UHGV virus genome: UHGV-2109381
Length of the DNA: 46,031 bases
Strand: one strand, 5' to 3'
DNA from: a virus
Shown here: in pieces, positions 3,175 through 44,532 of the stretch
How the letters are laid out: every line of letters starts with the position of its first letter
Position numbering within the stretch: position 1 is the stretch's first letter
The notes under the pieces: model-generated
The model's database searches: none
What the model was told of the DNA's origin: nothing
Seen by the model: the letters and a program-made list of their open reading frames with translations, nothing else
Position numbers and translations under genes: made by a program

Positions 3175-3287
3175 TTCGCCACGAAATCCGCAAAGAAGAC
3201 CTTAAAGCATGGCGCAACTTCAAAATAAAGCTGGCATTAATCGTTATCGGATTCGCCATTGCCAGCGCAATCTGTTTATCAAAGTGA
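3171..3287 (+). CDS. Small single-pass membrane protein of 38 aa.
   Basis: Not in the ORF track. Its ATG overlaps the upstream stop (aATGA). It carries a hydrophobic core LALIVIGFAIASAICL. Confidence 0.35.
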   Translation: MIRHEIRKEDLKAWRNFKIKLALIVIGFAIASAICLSK

Positions 3288-3294
3288 GGAAAAG

Positions 3295-4110
3295 ATGACA
3301 TCTCTCGGAAAAATTTACTCAGACAAAGAAACTCGCGGCGGAATCGTGGTCAACAAAGGTTATCAGGTTCCTGTCGACCAGCTTTATCTTGAGCCGGGAT
3401 ACAACATCCGCGAAGCCGATGAGCAGCACGTTGAATACTTCGCGCAGTGCTGGGAATCAGGCCAGCCAATCCCGGCGTTAACTGTTATTCCTGATGCCGA
3501 CGGAAAGCGCATCAAGATTCTTGACGGCCAGCATCGTTATCTTGGCGCATTGCGCGCCATTGAGCGCGGCGTACCAATTGCGCGCATTGAGTGCAAAGAC
3601 TTCACCGGCGATGAAGCGGATAAAATCGCCTTCATGGTGTCATCCAGTCAAGGAAAGCAGCTTGACCCGCTTGAGCGTGCAAAGGCTTATGTGCGCCTGA
3701 AAGGGTTCGGATGGACGAATGAAGAAATCGCCAAGAAGGTTGGTCGCTCAGTTTCTGATGTGCAGATGCACCTGTCACTTGGTGATGTACCTGATGCCAT
3801 CAAGCAACGCATCAATGCAGGCCAAATCAGCTATGCCAACGCCGTTGCGGTAGCACGTGAGCATGGCGATGATGCTGTTAACGTTATTGATGCAGCCGTT
3901 GAGGAAGCGAAAGCGCAGGGAAAAGATAAGGTGACGGCGAAAACCCTCAAGGCCAAAAAAGTTAAGCCGATTGACCGCCTGATTCAGTTGCTGAAAGAAG
4001 CAGATCACATGGTGGTAGCCGAGGGGCATGTGGCACAGGAGACAGAAGAATTTTTGCGCCTTCCTTCTGCTGAGTTGAATGAAGTGCTGGCGATTCTGGA
4101 GAAGCTGTGA
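3295..4110 (+). CDS. ParB N-terminal-like nuclease-domain protein with a DGQHR motif and a central HTH.
   Basis: KRIKILDGQHRYLGALRA matches the DGQHR/ParB-Srx-like fold. An HTH-like segment NEEIAKKVGRSVSDVQM follows. The ATG at 3295 sits behind a GAGGAAAAG SD. The track ORF 3259 start is upstream and in frame. Confidence 0.55.
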   Translation: MTSLGKIYSDKETRGGIVVNKGYQVPVDQLYLEPGYNIREADEQHVEYFAQCWESGQPIPALTVIPDADGKRIKILDGQHRYLGALRAIERGVPIARIECKDFTGDEADKIAFMVSSSQGKQLDPLERAKAYVRLKGFGWTNEEIAKKVGRSVSDVQMHLSLGDVPDAIKQRINAGQISYANAVAVAREHGDDAVNVIDAAVEEAKAQGKDKVTAKTLKAKKVKPIDRLIQLLKEADHMVVAEGHVAQETEEFLRLPSAELNEVLAILEKL

Positions 4111-10551: not shown

Positions 10552-10910
10552 AAAGACTCCTGAAAAACATCGCATGGGATATCTTCCTGATGTGGCCGCT
10601 GATTTACTTCGGCCTGTTTATGCAGAATGTGTATGCATACAATATGGCTGTGGCTTTTTTCTGGTTCATGTCGATTGCGTCAATCATTACATCGGTTGGT
10701 TTGCTGTCAAGCAAAGACCTGCTTGATAAATCCGTTGCTCGCTACAAAAAGCCGCTATGGATTCATCATAAATACCAGGTTGTGACGACATTTTGCGAAA
10801 TAGCAGTAATGTTCGCGCTTGGTTATTTCTGGCTTGGTGGATTTTATCTGACCGCGACGCTGTTTCGCGCTGCCGCCAAGGAAAAAGTGACAGAGGAGGC
10901 TGGTAAATAA
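10548..10910 (+). CDS. Integral membrane protein with four predicted TM helices. A superinfection-exclusion or immunity role is a candidate.
   Basis: Hydrophobic segments MWPLIYFGLFM, VAFFWFMSIASIITSVGLL, FCEIAVMFALGYFWLGGFYL. Confidence 0.45.
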   Translation: MKRLLKNIAWDIFLMWPLIYFGLFMQNVYAYNMAVAFFWFMSIASIITSVGLLSSKDLLDKSVARYKKPLWIHHKYQVVTTFCEIAVMFALGYFWLGGFYLTATLFRAAAKEKVTEEAGK

Positions 10911-11050
10911 TGCCGGTAAAGCAGAATAGAGTACCAAAGGCCTACATCATCACCAGCAACCGTGGCCGCCGCTATCTGGCTTTTGCTGGTAGTGTTGAGC
11001 ATCAGAACGCGGCCATGTTTGGGTATAAAATTAAACCACTGTATGAGTGA
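10910..11050 (+). CDS. Hypothetical 46-aa protein.
   Basis: Its ATG overlaps the upstream stop (taaATG). It ends at TGA 11048-11050. Confidence 0.3.
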   Translation: MPVKQNRVPKAYIITSNRGRRYLAFAGSVEHQNAAMFGYKIKPLYE

Positions 11051-11057
11051 GAGAAAA

Positions 11058-11207
11058 ATGGAAGAGAAAAAGTATGTTGTTGAGTTCACTGAGGGTGAGC
11101 TTAATCAGGTAATGGAGTGTATCAAGCAGGCGTGGGCCGATGGCTTTGAAGATAAAGACCTTGAGAGCGCAGGAAGCAAGATTGTCGACAGGCTTAATGA
11201 CCTGTAA
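11058..11207 (+). CDS. Hypothetical 49-aa acidic protein.
   Basis: ATG behind a GAGTGAGAGAAAA SD. The track ORF 10962 start lacks signals. Confidence 0.35.
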   Translation: MEEKKYVVEFTEGELNQVMECIKQAWADGFEDKDLESAGSKIVDRLNDL

Positions 11208-16376: not shown

Positions 16377-16558
16377 TTCACCTCAACGCATTGTAAACTG
16401 TCAACATCTGGACTTACATCATGCCACGTCCGCTTTTCCTCGGCGATTTTCATTGCCGTAACGGCCGCCTGACACTGCTCCATGCTTTGCATTGGCACCA
16501 CCTGCATATTGGACGTATTGCTTGTGATTACGAATACCAGGAAGAAATACGACATCAC
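16373..16558 (-). CDS. Hypothetical small protein.
   Basis: 61 aa with a hydrophobic N-terminus. Coupled on both sides. Confidence 0.35.
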   Translation of the reverse strand: MMSYFFLVFVITSNTSNMQVVPMQSMEQCQAAVTAMKIAEEKRTWHDVSPDVDSLQCVEVK

Positions 16559-16776
16559 TTTACCTCATCATCAACCAGTGACCGGAACCATGCGGGGTAT
16601 GACTTCGCGCCGAGTTTATGGTCAACATTCTGAATATAATGCGCCGCATCATCCAGCTTGTCGGAAAGATAATAAAGCGACTTTCTTGCGCCAATAAGCA
16701 TGGCGCCACAGATTAGCATCACAATCAGATGCGGGTTGATGATGCAGAACAGGATTGTTTTGACGGCTTTAATCAT
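16555..16776 (-). CDS. Small membrane protein.
   Basis: 73 aa. TM segment LFCIINPHLIVMLICGAMLIGA. Confidence 0.4.
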   Translation of the reverse strand: MIKAVKTILFCIINPHLIVMLICGAMLIGARKSLYYLSDKLDDAAHYIQNVDHKLGAKSYPAWFRSLVDDEVK

Positions 16777-18056: not shown

Positions 18057-20591
18057 TTATCTCCTGCTCCGCCTAATCCATCCAGAGCCACGCTGTACGA
18101 TGTGATCGTTGCATGCATATCTGATTGCGTCAATGAAGTGGTTCCACGCATCCACAATATTTGTGAGCACGTTACCCGTCAGCTTGTCCACCTTGTAACT
18201 GTACATAGTGAACTCTTCCTGAGTCTGTGTGCAGCGGTCATGAATGATGATGCTGTCGCAACCCCTGAGCCAGGTTACACCATCCTCCACGCTCCCGGGC
18301 CACTTATTGCATGGATGGATATCAAATCCTGCGCGTTTGATGTGACTGATTGTTTCTGGCCGAGAGCAGTCCCCATACCATCTTGCCTTCCTGGAGAGTG
18401 GGAATGATTGCTCCATCGCTGTAGGTGTGTCGGTAATCTCAAGGCCTACACGGCCGTATTCGCGCGCGACGTAAAGGTTGCGGCGGTCATCAGGAAGTTT
18501 CTCAATGTAAACCTCAACCATCGCCGTTGCGTCCTGCGAGAATCCAAAGTCGATGCCAAAGTAAGGCCCATGCCATTCCGGCTTAACCTCGAAATCAGCA
18601 ACGCGCCACTTACCGCCAAATACCTGCTCATCATTACGCTTATTAAAGCGCCCACCCCACACCCATTGATAGCGGTCGAAGTCGGTCTCTTTCATGCGTT
18701 GCATTTGGCTTGGGAGCGGAGTATCCCAGAACCACGGATTGTCTGAGTAATTACACTCCATAATCAGGTTTTCATCATCCTCATAGATGCCGCCATTTTC
18801 GCGCAATTTATTATAAAAAGGCTCAACCCATATTTTCCACGTCGGGTCATGCTCTTTATTTGGGTTGAAGGTCACCCATATCTCTGACCCTTCAGCGCGG
18901 ACTGTTGGGGTGAGGATTTCCCAGCTTGTCTGGCTGACGTTTTCCGCCTCCTCGACCCAAGCTACTGTAATGCCAGCGAAGCCTTTTACGGTCGTCTGGT
19001 TGCGATACAGGCCTTTAAAGCGGAACTTTGCTTTCGTTACCTTGTGTGTTATTTCGTTGTTGATGACGCGAAACTCTTTTGTCTCGCCCTTCCTGTCAAT
19101 CTCGTCTTTCAGCTCCTGATATGAACTATCCTCAATAGACTGCTGAATCTCACGAAAACAAGCTATCCTGTCAGGCTTAAAGCGTGCACGCTCCGTAAGT
19201 ATTGTTGTTACTGTCCTTGTTTTTCCGCTGTTGTGTGTAACCGTGCCATCAGCAAGCAGGAAAAGATGATCGCCATCAATAGTGAACCCAGCGTATTCAC
19301 CATGCCCGACATAAGACAATGACACCTCAGTCATCTTTCCACGGGTTGACTTGGTTTTCTCTGCTATCTTCCTTTTTACTCGGCATGGGATTGTATGAAG
19401 GTCACCACTAACGAACACCTCCCATACGTCCTTTTCGTATATTCTTTTCTCACCTTTATATTCAAAGGTGACATCAGTCTTTTTGATTATGCTTGACTTG
19501 AAGCCAAGAGATCTTGCCACATCCATCAAAGAGAAGGCCATTTCTTTATTTATTGATGTGAAAGAATAGCTTTTCTTTTTCTGGTCATAATGCGAATCAG
19601 TATCCAATAGCCCAGCCAGAATCTGAAGTCTTACCTCTCTGCTGTTTTTGATATAGCAGTCAGGTATGTGTTTATTATTAATCACCCCAAGCTGCTGCAT
19701 TTTAGTTAGTAACGGGTTGGTGTTCTTCCCCATGCCAGCAGCTCGACCATTAGTTATCGCATAGACAGGGCATCTATCATCGTCGCGAACCTTTACCTGC
19801 ATCCCGTATTTGCTTGCCACGTTGTGAATGTAGTCAACTATCTCTGGATCAGGCGTGCATACTTCAACACCACGAGATGAACCATCACCTAACCATAAAC
19901 CAAGAAAGTACGGGTCAACTGGGACGCTTTGGTCATTAAAATCCCATCCTGTTCGCCACCCTTTAAAGACATGGCGGAACTTTTTGGAAGTTGCGCGCGA
20001 CAAATATTCTGAAACACCAATATTCAGTATTTCAGGTTCATTCGGGTAATAACGATAAATTCTTTTACCATCCGGTGTTTTTGTCTCGTCACTGATAGCA
20101 GATGGAATCTTTCGTAATGACAGTATGTGACTTGAGTTGACAGTGTAGTCATCAGCATATTTTTGATGAACCGTATACATGTCATCAAACCCCCGACAGA
20201 TGTTTAAAACATTTCGTGGTTTACTGTCTGGACCCATAACCTTATCGCCAACAACGATATCCTCTACGCGTTTTAGGCTACCATCAAACATCCTCACCAT
20301 CGTGCCGATGGCTAAGCATCCGCGCCCGCCAAACACAATCTTATTACGCTTGGGGTAAAGTAGCTTTTCCAGCTTTTCTGGTATCAGGTGATCAACGCCA
20401 ATATCAGAGTCGCTAACGTCATCAACTCCGCTTTGCGTCATTTTTAGTTTGCGAACAATCTGCTTATCTGTATTAACAACACCGAACACCGCAGATTCAG
20501 GCGCATCAATCACGCCATCGCCAATAATCTCTTCGAGTTTTTCAATTGCTGGTGCTGAGAGTCTTTTGCGTGCCATATATAGATTCCTCAT
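18057..20591 (-). CDS. Terminase large subunit (TerL) interrupted by an in-frame intein.
   Basis: The exteins give Walker A FGGRG|SGKTRTV. The C-terminal region (VTFNPN, WVEEAENV...) is nuclease-like. The 844-aa ORF minus a 363-aa intein leaves a ~481-aa terminase. Confidence 0.8.
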   Translation of the reverse strand: MRNLYMARKRLSAPAIEKLEEIIGDGVIDAPESAVFGVVNTDKQIVRKLKMTQSGVDDVSDSDIGVDHLIPEKLEKLLYPKRNKIVFGGRGCLAIGTMVRMFDGSLKRVEDIVVGDKVMGPDSKPRNVLNICRGFDDMYTVHQKYADDYTVNSSHILSLRKIPSAISDETKTPDGKRIYRYYPNEPEILNIGVSEYLSRATSKKFRHVFKGWRTGWDFNDQSVPVDPYFLGLWLGDGSSRGVEVCTPDPEIVDYIHNVASKYGMQVKVRDDDRCPVYAITNGRAAGMGKNTNPLLTKMQQLGVINNKHIPDCYIKNSREVRLQILAGLLDTDSHYDQKKKSYSFTSINKEMAFSLMDVARSLGFKSSIIKKTDVTFEYKGEKRIYEKDVWEVFVSGDLHTIPCRVKRKIAEKTKSTRGKMTEVSLSYVGHGEYAGFTIDGDHLFLLADGTVTHNSGKTRTVTTILTERARFKPDRIACFREIQQSIEDSSYQELKDEIDRKGETKEFRVINNEITHKVTKAKFRFKGLYRNQTTVKGFAGITVAWVEEAENVSQTSWEILTPTVRAEGSEIWVTFNPNKEHDPTWKIWVEPFYNKLRENGGIYEDDENLIMECNYSDNPWFWDTPLPSQMQRMKETDFDRYQWVWGGRFNKRNDEQVFGGKWRVADFEVKPEWHGPYFGIDFGFSQDATAMVEVYIEKLPDDRRNLYVAREYGRVGLEITDTPTAMEQSFPLSRKARWYGDCSRPETISHIKRAGFDIHPCNKWPGSVEDGVTWLRGCDSIIIHDRCTQTQEEFTMYSYKVDKLTGNVLTNIVDAWNHFIDAIRYACNDHIVQRGSGWIRRSRR
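19230..20318 (-). mobile_element. Intein (Hint domain plus LAGLIDADG homing endonuclease) inserted in the TerL P-loop.
   Basis: It starts with Cys (GGRG/CLAIGTMV) and ends ...LLADGTVTHN/SGKT. Two LAGLIDADG motifs are present: FLGLWLGDGSS and LAGLLDTDSH. Confidence 0.8.
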
Positions 20592-21233: not shown

Positions 21234-21785
21234 TTATACACCATGATTATCGTGAAACCCATACTCTTCTTCTGCTTTCTTTCTTGCCAGCTCCGCATCA
21301 AGTATGTCGTTGAAATATCCAAGATGTATGAACTTCTTGTTAACCCTTATTTTTGCTTGCCACTTTCGCTTATCCTTCCTCCAGTGTACCCCAGTTACTC
21401 CACTACTATTGCTAGAGTACTTAGATTTGTTTTTTAGATTCCCTCCCCTATTTGTCAGCCTGAGATTTTCAATCCTGTTATCACCAGGGTTATGGTTTAT
21501 ATGGTCAATCTCCAATCCACCAGTTATAGGGCCATTATGCATTTCCCATATGATTCTGTGCGCAAAGTATTTTCGTCCAGAGCACCAAATAGATGTATAT
21601 CCTTTTGACCCTGAGTGGCCTGCAACCTTACCTTTTCTTGCCTTGCGGCCATCATCCTCGCGCCATATCAGGTTTCCGTTGTTGTATTCAAACAGCTCAT
21701 TCCAGTCTATTCTTTTCATCACACTTACCGCTCCTGCACCACAAATCATTGCGTGGGGATTTAACATGAACCACCTCAATCGCAT
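21234..21785 (-). CDS. HNH-AP2 homing endonuclease, copy 3 (intact HNH and AP2 domains).
   Basis: HNH region YFAHRIIWEMHNGPITGGLEIDHINHNPGDNRIENLR. AP2 region SGVTGVHWRKDKRKWQAKIRVNKKFIHLGYF. Possible starts are 21785, 21767 (GAGGTGG SD) or 21719. Confidence 0.8.
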   Translation of the reverse strand: MRLRWFMLNPHAMICGAGAVSVMKRIDWNELFEYNNGNLIWREDDGRKARKGKVAGHSGSKGYTSIWCSGRKYFAHRIIWEMHNGPITGGLEIDHINHNPGDNRIENLRLTNRGGNLKNKSKYSSNSSGVTGVHWRKDKRKWQAKIRVNKKFIHLGYFNDILDAELARKKAEEEYGFHDNHGV

Positions 21786-24269: not shown

Positions 24270-24302
24270 TGCCAGTAATTTATTAATCGTTGCTAAACCG
24301 GT

Positions 24303-24488
24303 TTAGTTTCCACCAGATGACACGATAACCTGCTCAAGCACTCTCTGCTTGCCTTCGCCACTAAAAACTCGACAGACGCGCTTACCGTTGCTGTATGAAT
24401 GCATTGCCTGCGCCATCATAAAGTCTTGCGCTTTCACTGCGCCCATTTCTGGTTCCAGTTGAGTGCGCGTGTAGATTGCTTTGGTCAT
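24303..24488 (-). CDS. First early-left gene, a 61-aa small protein and possible small regulator.
   Basis: ATG with an AGGTGA SD, about 25 nt downstream of the leftward early promoter. Confidence 0.45.
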   Translation of the reverse strand: MTKAIYTRTQLEPEMGAVKAQDFMMAQAMHSYSNGKRVCRVFSGEGKQRVLEQVIVSSGGN

Positions 24489-24519
24489 TCTTCATCACCT
24501 ATTTGTTGTTGGTGTGGTA

Positions 24520-24548
24520 ACTATACGATGGCGCTCAATCTACGTCAA
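24520..24548 (-). promoter_or_regulatory. Leftward early promoter, a near-identical copy of the consensus promoter at 2833.
   Basis: The minus strand reads TTGACGTAGATTGAgcgccatcgTATAGT, with a 17-nt spacer. Confidence 0.65.
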
Positions 24549-24600
24549 TATGATGGTGAAAATAAATCAGATTGGGGTAAATTTTACCCCTGTGGGTAAG

Positions 24601-24870
24601 GTGTTGGGGCATAGGGCTTCCCCACGCACAAGCCTTGTCACTAAAGGGATTTAACATTTTTGGGGCAGTGGGGCAATTTTGACACCCATCCCCTTGTATA
24701 TATAAAAATGCCGCAAGTTTGTTAATTTATTGTTAAAATAATACCTATAATATGAATAATAATATTACCCATTACCCCAACTACTACTATTATTATTATA
24801 TTACATATACTTAGAGTATAAAAGTTTGGGGCAACTAGGGTGCCCCAAGGCTGCCCCATATGCCCCACAA
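24601..24870. promoter_or_regulatory. Divergent early control region. TGGGGCA heptamer repeats and a 21-bp palindrome flank a very AT-rich core that carries rightward promoter candidates.
   Basis: TGGGGCA at 24605, 24661, 24669 and 24827. The complement TGCCCCA at 24841, 24852 and 24861. Palindrome TGGGGCAactagggTGCCCCA at 24827-24847. Promoter candidates TTGACA (24679) with TATAAA (24701), and a perfect TATAAT at 24746. Confidence 0.5.
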
Positions 24871-24943
24871 TGAATGTTTGTGATTGCATGATTCAATGTT
24901 TATGATATGATTCAACATAGATTTGTTTGATGAGGGGGTTGAT

Positions 24944-25162
24944 GTGTATCTTGATAAGTACGGAAAGAAGAATGCGGCGCTGTCTTCGCTTGCAGCTATC
25001 GCTGTTGGGGAGGTGGTAACTTATGATGCAAGAAAGTTTGGCGGCGTTGTGAGTTTAAGGAACGCCATCAATTACTTCATGCGCAGGAATCCTGATTTAA
25101 AATTTTCCACTAAAGCCGGATATCCTGACAAAGAGACAATTTACGTGAAAAGGATTTCATGA
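24944..25162 (+). CDS. First early-right gene, hypothetical. The start is uncertain: GTG at 24944 or TTG at 24923.
   Basis: GAGGGGG SD 5 nt before the GTG. The track start is a TTG. Confidence 0.4.
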   Translation: MYLDKYGKKNAALSSLAAIAVGEVVTYDARKFGGVVSLRNAINYFMRRNPDLKFSTKAGYPDKETIYVKRIS

Positions 25163-26715
25163 TGATTACAGCACAGGAAATCTTCAATCAGGCAAGAGAA
25201 GCCCACACCTCTGCGGCGCGCGTAGCCATTCATCATGGCATGACACCAAGCCACAACATGTGGCCGGAAATCAAGGAAGGGCAGGAGAAGGATGTAACAT
25301 ACTCGGAGATAGAGCTTACCAGCGACAACAGGAAAGACCTGATAACGCGCTACTCAGTTGCGGCGGCTAGGGCTGTGCAATTCCCAGTTAGCACGTCATT
25401 CATGCATTTGCTTGGCTGCGTAGCCAGTGCCATGACGCGAAATTTTAGCGTTGAATACTACGGTTCTGAATTGCCTGTTTCATTGTACGTAGTGACGTCG
25501 CAGCCGCCATCAGCTGGCAAGACAGCCATCAACTCAATGCACATGAACCCGATAAAAATTGAGTATGACAACCTGTCAAAAAAGATGGAGAAGGAAATTG
25601 TAAAGATAAACATTCGCATTGAAGACCTGATGAAGGCTTACAAGGAGGCAACTAACCAGAACGCGAAGGCCATCATTGGAGATGATATCGCGAAAGAGAA
25701 GGAAAAACTGGAAAGTCTTTACACCATCACCTACCCGTTAACCGATGCAACACCAGAAGCGGTGCAGCACCAGGCAATTCATGAGGGTGGTTTTTTCAAC
25801 CTGATAAGTGATGAGGCAAGCGTTTTAAATACCTGCCTTGGACTTTCGTATGGCAAGGATGGAGGAAAGTCTAACGCCGAAGTCATCCTTAAAGGCTGGG
25901 ATGGCGGGTTTGTTGGTTCAGCTCGCGTTGGTCGTGGTGTTTCATCTGGCTATGTGCTTGGTAACATCAGCGTCATTGCACAGGACGAAAGTATTGATGC
26001 CATTCTTTCCGCTGGCGACAGGGGTAATGGATTGTCAGAGCGATTCCTGATGCTTCGTGAGCAGTCGATGTTGGGTTATCGTGAGCATTGGGATGTTGAA
26101 AATGATTGCCCGGTAAGTAAGCCAATGCCTAAAGAACTAAAGGCAGAATATGCCAGATTTGTGCATAACCTTGTGGCTTCTGAGAAGGTTGTTTTCTCCC
26201 TCGCTAAAGAATCGCAGCGTATGATTGGGCTCTTACGAAACCAGTGGGAAAAGAATTTCCTGCCAGGTGGTAAATGGGATCACGTTTTGCTTCGTGGCGC
26301 CATGGGTAAGGCTGACAAACAGATAATCAGGCTTTCGGCAATATTCCATGCCGCTGAAAACTGGTGCGATGGCGGTCGTCGCTCAAAAATTATTGGTGAG
26401 GAGCATATAAGCCGTGCCATAAGCGTTTATGATGCACTAACAAAAACATTTACCGATGCCGTTGAGTCAAATGGATACGCTGGCGAGAAATCAGAAATTG
26501 ATGTCGTTGCTGAAAAATTGCGCACGGCTGCGCAAAAAGGAAAGACAAATGTCACAGTGAAATGGTTGTATGATTCACTAAAAAACGTTAGACCATTCAA
26601 AGGCATACCGCATATTTATGACAGACTCAAGTCAAGCGTTTTGCCTTCTCTTGAAGAGGATGGATATTGCGTATTCCTCAATAATACTGTTTACCTGAAT
26701 CCGAGGCTTAAATGA
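25159..26715 (+). CDS. P-loop ATPase, putative replicative helicase/primase-associated NTPase.
   Basis: Walker A VVTSQPPSAGKTAINS. 518 aa. AAGGA SD. It precedes the primase-like gene. Confidence 0.45.
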   Translation: MMITAQEIFNQAREAHTSAARVAIHHGMTPSHNMWPEIKEGQEKDVTYSEIELTSDNRKDLITRYSVAAARAVQFPVSTSFMHLLGCVASAMTRNFSVEYYGSELPVSLYVVTSQPPSAGKTAINSMHMNPIKIEYDNLSKKMEKEIVKINIRIEDLMKAYKEATNQNAKAIIGDDIAKEKEKLESLYTITYPLTDATPEAVQHQAIHEGGFFNLISDEASVLNTCLGLSYGKDGGKSNAEVILKGWDGGFVGSARVGRGVSSGYVLGNISVIAQDESIDAILSAGDRGNGLSERFLMLREQSMLGYREHWDVENDCPVSKPMPKELKAEYARFVHNLVASEKVVFSLAKESQRMIGLLRNQWEKNFLPGGKWDHVLLRGAMGKADKQIIRLSAIFHAAENWCDGGRRSKIIGEEHISRAISVYDALTKTFTDAVESNGYAGEKSEIDVVAEKLRTAAQKGKTNVTVKWLYDSLKNVRPFKGIPHIYDRLKSSVLPSLEEDGYCVFLNNTVYLNPRLK

Positions 26716-27917: not shown

Positions 27918-28070
27918 ATGGCTATCACATTGAAGAAGTGCAAACACTGCGGGAGAGAATTTCATGGAACATCAAGAGCTGAGTTCTGCTGCTCGGGGTG
28001 CAGACTTAAAAACTTCAGGGAAGAAAGAAAAGCTAAAGGTTTCACAGGAAAGTCTGATGGAGGTTCTTGA
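27918..28070 (+). CDS. Cys-rich mini-ORF (CxxC...CxxGC zinc-ribbon-like, 50 aa) upstream of and overlapping HNH copy 1.
   Basis: MAITLKKCKHCGREFHG..FCCSGCRLKNFRE. GAGGTTAAC SD. It ends GGU UCU UGA, and the +1 frame at that point reads LDYSPDTG... of the HNH ORF. Confidence 0.4.
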   Translation: MAITLKKCKHCGREFHGTSRAEFCCSGCRLKNFREERKAKGFTGKSDGGS

Positions 28071-28530
28071 TTACAGTCCTGACACCGGGGTGTTTAACTG
28101 GATTAATGGCAACTTAAGAAATGTCAAGCCAGGAGATATTGCTGGATATAAAAATTCACGTGGGTACATAAAAATAAGGGTTTGGTCAAGGCTGTTTTTC
28201 GCGCATAGATTGGCGTGGATTTATGTTTATGGAGAAGATATCGATGGGCATGAAATAGACCATATAAATGGTGATAAGTCAGACAATAGAATTTGCAACC
28301 TTAGAATTTCCAGTCATCAACAAAACATGTTCAACATGAAAAAGAAATCAACAAATAAATCTGGTGTAAAAGGCGTGCATTTCGACAAAAGATGCAATAA
28401 ATGGAGAGCCCAGACATCAATAAACAAAAAGAGGGTTCATATTGGATTGTTTAATACCATAGAATCGGCAGAAAATGCTATTCGTGAATTCATGGTAGCC
28501 AACCATAAAGAGTTTATTAATTTAGGGTGA
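27964..28530 (+). CDS. HNH-AP2 homing endonuclease, copy 1 (intact).
   Basis: HNH region FFAHRLAWIYVYGEDIDGHEIDHINGDKSDNRICNLR. AP2 region SGVKGVHFDKRCNKWRAQTSINKKRVHIGLF. Possible starts are 27964 (GGGAGAG SD) or 28057 (AGGAAAG SD). Confidence 0.8.
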   Translation: MEHQELSSAARGADLKTSGKKEKLKVSQESLMEVLDYSPDTGVFNWINGNLRNVKPGDIAGYKNSRGYIKIRVWSRLFFAHRLAWIYVYGEDIDGHEIDHINGDKSDNRICNLRISSHQQNMFNMKKKSTNKSGVKGVHFDKRCNKWRAQTSINKKRVHIGLFNTIESAENAIREFMVANHKEFINLG

Positions 28531-30883: not shown

Positions 30884-30951
30884 TGCATTGTTAGTAACAG
30901 GTAAAAGTTACTTGCAATGTAACGCTGAATGATTACAATAGAGGGTAAGAA

Positions 30952-31554
30952 ATGGCTATCACCGTTAAGAAATGCGAGGTTTGCGGAAATGAGTTCATCG
31001 GAACTGCAAAAGCAAAATTCTGCTCTGGGAGATGTAGAGTCAAAAACCACAGGAAAAACAAAAAGAATACCTCTTGATGTCGTTTTGCATAACTTAACTT
31101 ACAACCATGAAACAGGACTTTTCTTCAGAAATAAGACTGGTGGAGGAGTCAAGAAAGGAAGTGTAGCTGGAAGGAAAAAGCATAACGGATATATAGAAAT
31201 AAGCATAAACAATACGAGATATTATGCGCATCGTCTTGCATGGCTCATGCATTACGGTTTCTGGCCTGAACACCAGATCGATCATATCAATGGTGTTCGT
31301 GATGACAACCGGATTAGTAACTTAAGAATTGCAACAAACATGCAGAACCAGTACAACGCGAAAAGCCAAAAAACAATACATCTGGAGTTAAAGGCGTTTA
31401 CTGGCATAAGCAATGCAAGAAATGGCAGGCATACTGCGATGTAAGCGGTAGAAGATACAGCATTGGGTTGTTCCATGATATTGAGAAAGCAAAGGTTGCT
31501 GTTATGAATTTTAGAGAAAAAATGCACAAAAATTTTTGCAACCACGGAGAGTGA
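30952..31554 (+). pseudogene. HNH-AP2 homing endonuclease, copy 2, split over three frames. A Cys-rich mini-ORF spans 30952..31077. The HNH body (track ORF 30929..31444) is in its +1 frame. The AP2 domain sits in a further frame to 31554 after an A6 run at 31368-31373.
   Basis: Mini-ORF MAITVKKCEVCGNEF..FCSGRCRVKNHRK ends UCU UGA. HNH region YYAHRLAWLMHYGFWPEHQIDHINGVRDDNRISNLR. The AP2 region SGVKGVYWHKQCKKWQAYCDVSGRRYSIGLF is readable only in a different frame. Confidence 0.6.
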
Positions 31555-44095: not shown

Positions 44096-44230
44096 ATGAA
44101 CGAGACTGATGCTGATTTGAGATTTTACATCGACCTTTACATTGATCAGGGCTACACCTATGAGGAGGCCCGTGTAAAGGCGATTTTGTTGCTGGCTAAG
44201 ATTGGCGTAGTGGTGGAGGATAAGAGATGA
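44096..44230 (+). CDS. Hypothetical 44-aa protein, first gene of the moron.
   Basis: ATG after a GAGGG SD. Its stop overlaps the next ATG (ATGA). Confidence 0.35.
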   Translation: MNETDADLRFYIDLYIDQGYTYEEARVKAILLLAKIGVVVEDKR

Positions 44231-44532
44231 GCACTGATTACAGCAAGATGAGTGATTTTGAGATTAATTGCCGCGTGCATTCAGAGGTTATGGAAATTTC
44301 AGGGCTGGATTCATTTAAAGCAAAAGACTACTGCAACAACCCAGTAGATGCGTGGCCGATTATTGTTAATAATAGCATTTCTCTGGAATGTATTGTGGTG
44401 AACAGGCACGAGAAAACATGGCGAGCGCAATTCAAGACTGCATATGTTAAACATCGCGTAAACCACAAAAACCCACTCCGCGCCGCAATGATTGTCTTCC
44501 TCATGATGCAGGAGTCCAAAAATGCCAGTTAA
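44227..44532 (+). CDS. Hypothetical protein.
   Basis: 101 aa ORF, coupled. Confidence 0.5.
   Translation: MSTDYSKMSDFEINCRVHSEVMEISGLDSFKAKDYCNNPVDAWPIIVNNSISLECIVVNRHEKTWRAQFKTAYVKHRVNHKNPLRAAMIVFLMMQESKNAS

Follow-up and report, generated by a model that had tools for sequence, protein, structure and literature searches.

Several well-described replication origins combine repeated initiator sites with AT-rich DNA, and they are the closest described counterparts of an array of heptameric boxes that lies upstream of a helicase gene in UHGV virus genome UHGV-2109381 (the stretch analyzed, 46,031 nucleotides at full length, is referred to as the window). In the Staphylococcus aureus pathogenicity islands (SaPIs) SaPIbov1 and SaPI1, two sets of initiator-specific repeats flank an AT-rich region beside the gene for a hexameric helicase-initiator; according to Ubeda et al., the repeat sequence and the specificity region of the helicase reportedly co-vary between elements. 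In lambdoid phages (ori-O-P) and iteron plasmids, repeated initiator sites lie beside an AT-rich unwinding region; whole modules of origin and initiator are exchanged between otherwise similar lambdoid genomes, and inverted half-repeats autorepress the rep promoter of iteron plasmids. At the origins of SV40 and other polyomaviruses (large T antigen) and of papillomaviruses (E1), boxes arranged as inverted pairs by an AT tract are read by the DNA-binding domain of a hexameric helicase, whose two-sided assembly melts the origin. In phage P4, octamer repeats in ori and crr are bound by the C-terminal domain of the helicase-initiator α.

The window comes from a Klebsiella siphophage that is Roufvirus-like; it stands close to VLCpiS13a and KpV2811 and is also akin to Aeromonas phage pIS4-A (genus Roufvirus). 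Its array resembles the SaPI ori in having two sets of repeats around an AT-rich region, but the SaPI ori lies 3′ of rep, whereas the array lies 5′ of the helicase gene in a divergent promoter region; unlike in SaPI, the boxes are inverted between the two sides and include true inverted pairs, and the model of the phage helicase matches SaPI5 Pri-Rep (7ola) only remotely (Foldseek E = 0.25, vs. E = 1.5e-4 for minichromosome maintenance [MCM] proteins). Lambda iterons are located within the gene for the non-helicase protein O, whereas the heptamers of the window are intergenic and an MCM-like AAA+ helicase is proposed as their initiator; the array also shows no enrichment of DnaA boxes, unlike many iteron-type origins. 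P4 has in common with the phage a primase with the zinc ribbon of family PF08273 (the phage primase gives a weak tblastn match to that of P4), but P4 α is a fused primase and superfamily 3 (SF3) helicase acting at two separated repeat clusters, whereas primase and helicase are encoded here by separate genes. The SV40 and papillomavirus origins are closest in working logic; their helicases, however, are SF3 enzymes of eukaryotic viruses without homology to the phage helicase, and the AT core of the phage array is much longer, at ~130 bp, and is enclosed by the box sets. The array is not homologous to the SaPI, SV40/papillomavirus or lambdoid origins, from which it differs in initiator class and in its 5′ placement.

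The repeat itself has been noticed before: GenBank AM491472 (Salmonella phage Vi II-E1) annotates both inverted pairs as a 25-nt repeat ("repeat of sequence GTGGGGCAACCAACCTGCCCCACGA," twice), in bare repeat_region entries to which no function is assigned. A functional assignment was not found in the literature, and a full-text literature search for the repeat string gave no match. For these Klebsiella, Salmonella and E. coli siphophages and their T1-like relatives no defined replication origin was found in the literature consulted, and a 2024 re-annotation of the T1-like phage TLS found no origin-type repeats.

The comparisons below suggest that the array is the cis half of a replication cassette and most likely its lytic origin or helicase-loading site, a reading given a probability of about 0.55. 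The helicase encoded in the same cassette is the proposed initiator and box-binding protein. An origin is the best explanation because the helicase is the sole constant trans partner of the boxes and because the boxes stand on both sides of a putative DNA-unwinding element.

Box Type Follows Helicase Type

Conservation was followed in 28 IMG/VR loci that encode the same helicase (86–100% identity), from which 18 distinct intergenic sequences were aligned, and in relatives that carry a different cassette. In many relatives the match to the window extends no farther than ~24566. Homology stops at exactly this base in three loci, and in one of them, the type-2, Klebsiella-like locus L079, homology of 97% breaks off at 24566 and is restored from the first base of orf63 (26712) onward. 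The type-2 helicase, found at the same position in Salmonella phage seszw (genus Skatevirus) and Klebsiella phage KP591P1, has 496 amino acids (aa), no Pfam match and no detectable similarity to the DUF3987 helicase of the window (type 1; BLASTP E = 1.2). Between seszw and the type-1 phage STGO-35-1, the replaced block measures 2.7–2.9 kb and comprises the array, the small gene orfX, the helicase gene and two small genes, with flanks that are 92–94% identical.

The type-2 array is arranged like that of type 1 but consists of TTATCC(C/A) and CAACC boxes, with zero copies of TGGGGNA. Box type and helicase type partition perfectly over 32 loci: the 22 loci with a DUF3987 helicase (22/22) have 4–10 TGGGG[ACT]A boxes and 0 TTATCC boxes, and the 10 loci with the 496-aa helicase (10/10) have 3–10 TTATCC boxes and 0 TGGGG[ACT]A boxes. 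Judged from the sequences compared, box divergence is also graded with helicase divergence. A helicase of 64% identity (locus L088) is accompanied by TGGGGT(A/G) and (T/C)ACCCCA boxes, and one of 51% identity (Pectobacterium phage Ymer) by four copies of TTCCCCA and a TGGGGAA beside a "aataataattacccatt" core. In phage T1, whose helicase is 37% identical, six GTTAATC/GATTAAC boxes occupy the divergent region with the corresponding topology, which runs across the record ends; these boxes (146–508) surround the least stable 100 bp of T1 (203–302), and the region is a candidate origin or control region. The annotation table of the T1 record lists no such box or origin feature. T1 has in addition a separate cluster of four TATTCCA copies at 48749–48797.

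Among the candidate genes compared, only the helicase gene is of a type that follows box type. The product of orfX (orf79 in the window) was rejected as a partner since four types of it, AP2-domain proteins among them, go with unchanged boxes, and since its third type is also found in type-2 cassettes. Likewise set aside were the orf63 product, which is 87% identical in a type-2 locus; the primase and the superfamily 2 (SF2) helicase, both encoded by backbone genes; and the leftward genes, the first of which is replaced among relatives while box type is unchanged. A 73-aa protein (16555–16776) was linked to type 1 in a four-genome screen, yet many type-1 phages lack it, and it is also found in phages that are not type 1. 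The same comparison showed co-occurrence with type 1 for a NinX-like open reading frame (ORF) at 44227–44532, 81-aa ORFs at 10844–11207 and a partial ORF at 1–271.

Two other phage proteins would give the array a different function. If the boxes were sites for the small terminase (TerS), flanking the first cleavage region, the array would be a packaging (pac) site, an arrangement brought to mind by the four-plus-three repeats around a core, which resemble the layout of P1 pac, by the several GenBank and IMG records with an opening or break within the AT core and by the position of the T1 equivalent at the ends of a linear record. Box type is independent of the TerS-like protein, however, for which identity is 99.3% in type-2 KP591P1 and 92% in seszw, whereas type-1 STGO-35-1 reaches only 49%. 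In addition, PhageTerm analyses in papers on two relatives report headful packaging of permuted genomes with no fixed termini, the broken records miss 2–35 nt at differing positions, which looks like assembly failure, and the Akira record is opened between the annotated repeats; a pac site is considered very unlikely. Still less probable is a centromere-like or silencing site for the protein with ParB-helix-turn-helix (HTH) and KorB domains encoded at 3259–4110. This protein is 80% conserved across genera, and P1 parS likewise has heptamer boxes in both orientations around a bent center; but the protein is equally similar (79–81%) in phages of types 1 and 2, despite boxes that have nothing in common, and its homologs elsewhere stand in nin-like or DNA-modification contexts. 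The neighborhoods of ParB-like homologs in unrelated phages contained no array.

Architecture and Conservation of the Array

The seven exact heptamers reported in the first-pass annotation are all present, as TGGGGCA at 24605, 24661, 24669, and 24827 and as TGCCCCA at 24841, 24852, and 24861. On both strands of the whole window TGGGGCA occurs 11 times vs. 7.0 expected; 7 of these copies fall within 24605–24867 and only four in the remaining 45.8 kb. The observed 7 heptamers per 270 bp compare with a maximum of 3, reached once, in 270-bp windows of 200 simulated first-order Markov sequences, and among the 7-mers of the window TGCCCCA shows the strongest clustering. The "perfect 21-bp palindrome" described at 24827–24847 is really a pair of exactly matching arms, each 7 nt long (8 nt with the flanking T/A), around an asymmetric 7-nt spacer, ACTAGGG. 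The array also exceeds its earlier description, with degenerate boxes at 24573 (TGGGGTA), 24584 (TTACCCC), 24593 (TGGGTAA), and 24618 (TTCCCCA), the last of which pairs with the box at 24605 to form a second inverted pair, and with further copies at 24683–24693 (CACCCATCCCC) and, within the core, at 24765–24779 (TTACCCATTACCCCA). The box family is TGGGG(C/A/T)A, with seven exact and at least six degenerate members in ~300 bp (Table 1).

Table 1. Elements of the box array, its AT-rich core and the genes and predicted promoters beside them, in window coordinates.
Feature	Coordinates	Strand	Basis or remark
Predicted leftward early promoter P_L, TTGACG-17-TATAGT	24520..24548	-	Consensus scan, 10/12 matches
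Exchangeable replicon-like cassette (array, AT core, P_R, orf79, helicase)	24567..26711		Homology breakpoints
Outer left box pair TGGGGTA / TTACCCC	24573..24590		Near-palindrome GGGGTAAATTTTACCCC at 24574-24590
Degenerate box TGGGTAA	24593..24599	+	TGGGGCA in Skatevirus-like relatives
Left inverted pair TGGGGCA-N6-TTCCCCA	24605..24624		Inverted pairing kept in nearly all type-1 relatives
Tandem direct boxes TGGGGCAgTGGGGCA	24661..24675	+	Exact heptamers
Conserved C-run element CACCCATCCCC	24683..24693		Left edge of core
AT-rich core, putative DNA-unwinding element	24694..24826		79% A+T, lowest stability
Direct repeat TGTTAA-N5-TGTTAA	24720-24736		Core sub-element
TATAAT	24746-24751		Core sub-element
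Internal boxes TTACCCA + TTACCCCA	24765-24779		Core sub-element
Conserved ATTATATTACATATACTTAGAG	24795-24816		Core sub-element
Right inverted pair TGGGGCA-N7-TGCCCCA	24827..24847		Pairing kept in relatives
Two bottom-strand boxes TGCCCCA x2	24852..24867	-	Spaced 11 and 9 nt from neighbors
Predicted rightward cassette promoter P_R, TTGTGA-17-TATGAT	24878..24906	+	Consensus scan
orf79 (orfX)	24944..25162	+	Likely start GTG 24944 after GAGGGGG; in-frame TTG 24923
DUF3987 MCM-like (superfamily 6) helicase, C-terminal winged helix	25159..26715	+	Pfam, AlphaFold2 model

The first-pass annotation had proposed a comparison of heptamer positions with related genomes, and position and order are kept in all relatives examined. 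The constant order is outer box, inverted pair, tandem boxes, ACCCATCCCC, AT core, inverted pair and two bottom-strand boxes, and this architecture is found in 22 loci of the Klebsiella Roufvirus-like and the Salmonella/E. coli Skatevirus-like genera, including the Salmonella/E. coli phages STGO-35-1, C1, Vi II-E1 and Akira. Within it, some sequences are fixed and others drift. GTGGGGTA of the outer left pair is invariant among the 18 distinct relatives, and ACCCATCCCCTT of the C-run element is nearly invariant in the alignment; in the left inverted pair both the spacer sequence and the sixth position (C or A) are free, the tandem-box site reads GGGGAAgtGGGGCA, GGGTAAAAAGGGGCA or GGGTTAACTGGGTTA in some relatives, the arms of the right pair occur as CA/TG, AA/TT or asymmetric AA/TG, and the bottom-strand boxes, which are the last elements before the orfX-module joint of relatives, read TTCCCCA, TTACCCA or TTAACCCA. 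The sixth position of the box varies among C, A and T, often asymmetrically between the arms of one pair; hence the unit under selection is the box and not a base-paired stem.

This pattern of variation bears on the possibility that the repeats reflect structure, as RNA or DNA hairpins (stem-loops of a 5′ untranslated region, terminators), or a platform for host proteins, and not sites of a phage initiator. Both inverted pairs can form hairpins, two sites are flagged as weak minus-strand terminator-like elements (the outer left pair is one such hit of the scan), the TGTTAA-N5-TGTTAA repeat of the core resembles an ArcA-type direct repeat, and the type-2 boxes TTATCCA/C resemble DnaA boxes. Against this, a change in one arm is often left unmatched in the other (CA/TT, AA/TG), and boxes that stand singly or in tandem vary alike; an Rfam scan of 24300–25100 returned only chance-level matches to small nucleolar RNAs and small RNAs; DnaA boxes (TTATNCACA, ≤1 mismatch) number 45 vs. 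45.9 expected in the window, with 2 in the region; and a host factor alone cannot account for boxes that follow helicase type so strictly in phages of Klebsiella, Salmonella and E. coli. Such an origin of the repeats is unlikely.

The AT-Rich Core

The boxes bracket an AT-rich core, as the first-pass annotation had it, and positions 24722–24821 are the least stable 100 bp of the window: duplex stability is −100.9 kcal/mol there vs. a mean of −139.5 (standard deviation 7.4) and a next lowest value of −115.6, a departure of ~5 standard deviations. The A+T content given earlier for 24700–24820, more than 85%, was too high, since 79% was measured and 85% is reached over the best 60 bp only; TATAAT (24746), TATAAA (24817) and the ATTATT runs are all there. 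In all five complete genomes compared (window, T1, STGO-35-1, seszw and KP591P1), the genome-wide stability minimum falls in the core of the array, and in the alignment of relatives the core is the best-conserved part of the intergenic region.

A motif, AATAATAAT...TACATAYAC (window 24795–24816 and 24755–24764), occurs in the core of both cassette types (31/32 loci), in the same orientation relative to the helicase gene in both, and is rare elsewhere (0–3 copies per genome). Its presence in both types suggests a factor common to both, such as the primase, a host protein or a polymerase. The two halves of TGTTAA-N5-TGTTAA are phased by 11 bp, and the repeat is found in all type-1 relatives; in locus L018 it reads GTTAATTAAATGTTA, which we take to be the consensus of the box for phosphorylated ArcA. 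The repeat could be a site for a host response regulator or simply part of the unwinding element. By eye, no match to WATCAANNNNTTR, looked for as an integration host factor (IHF) site, was seen in the core. As coding sequence, a 20-codon ORF from ATG 24752 was rejected since it is interrupted by TAA in most relatives, and a 55-aa minus-strand ORF (24722–24889) was judged implausible.

Three nominally complete genomes are linearized inside the core, at the equivalent of window positions 24760–24811: MT682064 (KpV2811), MZ440881 (ZCKP8), and OP373729 (ZCKp20p). Each lacks 2–35 nt of the core, and IMG/VR contig 3300045988_062303 appears to end there too. These breaks are probably failures of assembly in AT-rich, low-complexity DNA, so the three genomes would be slightly incomplete. 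Gene calls are affected as well: a "putative membrane protein" ORF is annotated within the type-2 array in Skate/seszw records (L087, 32363–32602; L072, 5837–6076), and in VLCpiS13a and pIS4-A an extra gene separates the DUF7540 gene from the array; ORFs called inside these arrays are probably spurious.

The Helicase and a Model for Its Action

The product of the helicase gene matches Pfam PF13148 (DUF3987; E = 2e-35) and has the invariant residues P116, G120 and K121 of a Walker-type P-loop. Its AlphaFold2 model (predicted local distance difference test 90.6, predicted template modeling score 0.86) finds its best Foldseek fold matches in the PDB among archaeal and eukaryotic MCM subunits (E = 1.5e-4, probability 1.0), and residues ~443–513 of the model follow the helix-strand-helix-helix-strand-strand pattern of a winged helix; the protein models as an MCM-like helicase with a C-terminal winged helix. 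DUF3987 has been placed among the superfamily 6 (SF6) replicative helicases with a C-terminal winged HTH domain (PMC4889955), with which the present model agrees, and helicase activity has been demonstrated for another DUF3987 protein (PMC11724360). Sequence searches of the PDB with the helicase, by single sequence and by profile, gave nothing significant, and a search of a plasmid collection gave no informative homolog.

These features suggest a model in which the DUF3987/MCM-like helicase, encoded ~300 bp downstream, or a complex containing it, would recognize the TGGGG(C/A/T)A boxes, probably via its C-terminal winged-helix domain. It would assemble to the left and right of the AT core, on the two inverted pairs and the direct boxes beside them, melt this least stable DNA of the genome, and recruit the DnaG-type primase and single-stranded DNA-binding protein (SSB) of the phage together with the host polymerase. 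The same binding may autoregulate helicase expression, as Rep proteins do in iteron replicons, since P_R, the promoter of the cassette itself, is directly adjoined by the right-hand boxes. The first-pass annotation had held the layout to fit either an operator array or an origin of iterons plus an unwinding element, and the latter has gained comparative support from the co-inheritance of helicase and boxes, the switch in box type and the stability minima of five phages.

Several observations weigh against an origin read by the helicase. An upstream region co-inherited with a gene is also what would be expected of a cassette's own promoter or regulatory DNA. In some relatives the outer boxes drift to TTAACCC-like forms while the helicase is unchanged, which implies that recognition is loose or that more than one factor is involved, and a host factor may cooperate with each helicase type. 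The core is more strongly conserved than a plain unwinding element requires and may hold promoters, because it contains a perfect TATAAT: a rightward candidate, TTAAT(T/A)-17/18-TATAAT, is possible, whereas for a leftward one no conserved −35 element was found among relatives and TACATATAC is not conserved as a −10 element. The correspondence with T1 is based on position and architecture only. A cumulative GC-skew minimum does lie at 24–25 kb, but it is uninformative because it coincides with the switch in gene orientation. Finally, the genome-reduction data described below concern a type-2 cassette and not that of the window.

Retention of the Array in Reduced seszw Genomes

Phage seszw has been the subject of a CRISPR genome-reduction study (PMC9825161). 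Among the GenBank records sampled, the full 491-bp array region is kept in every mutant, down to 36.5 kb from a wild type of 45.9 kb. By comparison, orfX is cleanly removed in the viable mutant seszw_290L, and seszw_200L has lost leftward genes 53–59 and one gene downstream of the helicase gene. In the mutant records, gene 51, the ORF annotated inside the array, shows point changes only and is never lost; boxes are altered by two of these changes, TTATCTC becoming TTATCCC and TTATCCC becoming TTACCCC. Retention of the array fits an indispensable cis element. Mutants seszw_290L and seszw_260S differ from the array region of L087 (32200–32680) by several point changes or 1-nt indels; these changes in passaged mutants may be adaptive or may reflect escape from Cas9.

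Predicted Promoters and the Operator Alternative

The two predicted promoters that flank the array differ in their relation to the cassette. P_L is backbone DNA outside the swappable cassette, to whose edge type-2 homology also extends (24566), and TTGACGTAG of P_L is invariant in the alignment of relatives. P_R overlaps a direct repeat, two copies of ATGATTCAA (24888 and 24907), and is exchanged along with orfX in relatives having AP2-type modules.

The boxes could instead be operator or activator sites that time these divergent early promoters, bound by the helicase as autoregulator or by another factor, with replication starting elsewhere. The array does stand between two good σ70-like predicted promoters, the right-hand boxes stop 10 bp upstream of the −35 element of P_R, the core has TATAAT-like hexamers, and inverted pairs would suit a regulator that binds as a dimer; the seszw data indicate that the region is indispensable but do not give the reason. 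A transcriptional role is conceivable because the cassette would carry its own promoter region anyway, and through autoregulation it overlaps in part with an origin. On the other side, all boxes lie outside the −35 and −10 hexamers, and avoid the +1 positions, of the predicted P_L and P_R; P_L belongs to the backbone and adjoins either type of array; and no HTH repressor or regulator was detected in domain searches of early-region proteins. The logic of an adjacent regulator fails because flanking genes are swapped without a change of box and because orfX can be deleted in seszw. Transcriptional control would also leave unexplained the geometry of the array, why boxes surround the stability minimum in five phages and why they are independent of the adjacent genes. 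The classical form of the operator reading, one of the two put forward in the first-pass annotation, is weakened by the position of the boxes off the promoter hexamers and by the swapping of neighboring genes, while its milder form, autoregulation of the cassette promoter, is possible; as a full account of the array, transcriptional control is rather doubtful.

Genome Setting

The array sits in a 435-bp intergenic region (24489–24922) between divergent operons. The leftward operon begins with a DUF7540 gene (24303–24488) and small early genes, followed by the genes for the TerS-like protein, the large terminase (TerL) and the structural proteins. The rightward replication operon begins with orf79, the gene for the 518-aa DUF3987 helicase and orf63; the stop codon of orf79 overlaps the start of the helicase gene, an arrangement of translational coupling. 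Beyond orf63, a gene for a DnaG-type primase, which is encoded on the other strand, is followed by those for an SF2 helicase, exonuclease VIII, Erf and SSB. The gene annotation of the window contains no DNA polymerase gene.

The orfX position (24923–25162, and in four further loci) is a hot-swap slot coupled to the helicase gene. Its contents are of the orf79 type, one of two stand-alone AP2-domain proteins or a third type, each with its own promoter; the AP2 assignment comes from Pfam matches of E ~5e-5 to 9e-5, below the gathering score. The joint of the slot lies directly after the last box (~24867), and homology with many relatives stops at ~24866.

The TerL ORF (18057–20591, minus strand) encodes 844 aa, with terminase homology confined to residues ~455–844; TerL has ~475 aa in STGO-35-1 and KP591P1, and KpV2811 has the long form of the window. 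The N-terminal extension of ~450 aa could be a fusion or an inserted element. Three HNH endonuclease genes split the early and replication regions (21234–21785, minus strand; 27964–28530 and 30929–31444, plus strand), two of which encode AP2-like C-terminal DNA-binding regions; they are missing at these positions in several relatives, as is typical of homing-endonuclease mosaicism. The gene for the ParB/KorB-like protein (plus strand) adjoins RusA-like and EaC genes in relatives and is not linked to the array; the phage is virulent, and the gene has no partition context.

Implications

More broadly, and tentatively, virulent T1-like and Skate-like siphophages may use exchangeable replicon cartridges, each made up of a sequence-specific, self-loading helicase, MCM-like or unrelated, and its own boxes around a shared AT core. 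The helicase would read the heptamers by its winged helix, and the AATAATAAT...TACATAYAC motif would be a docking or start site for a shared factor, e.g., the conserved primase. The array tends to break short-read assemblies and to draw spurious ORF calls, and these siphophages are a large group of therapeutic candidates; if the origin reading is true, the array would be a cis element of ~300 bp to be preserved in genome reduction and engineering. It would also explain a recurrent mosaic joint in these genomes and would provide a concrete, testable pair of origin and initiator for the DUF3987/MCM-like phage helicases, a family with uncharacterized origin recognition. If the cartridge model is true as well, its helicase would be a bacterial-virus analog, on an MCM scaffold, of SV40 large T antigen and papillomavirus E1.

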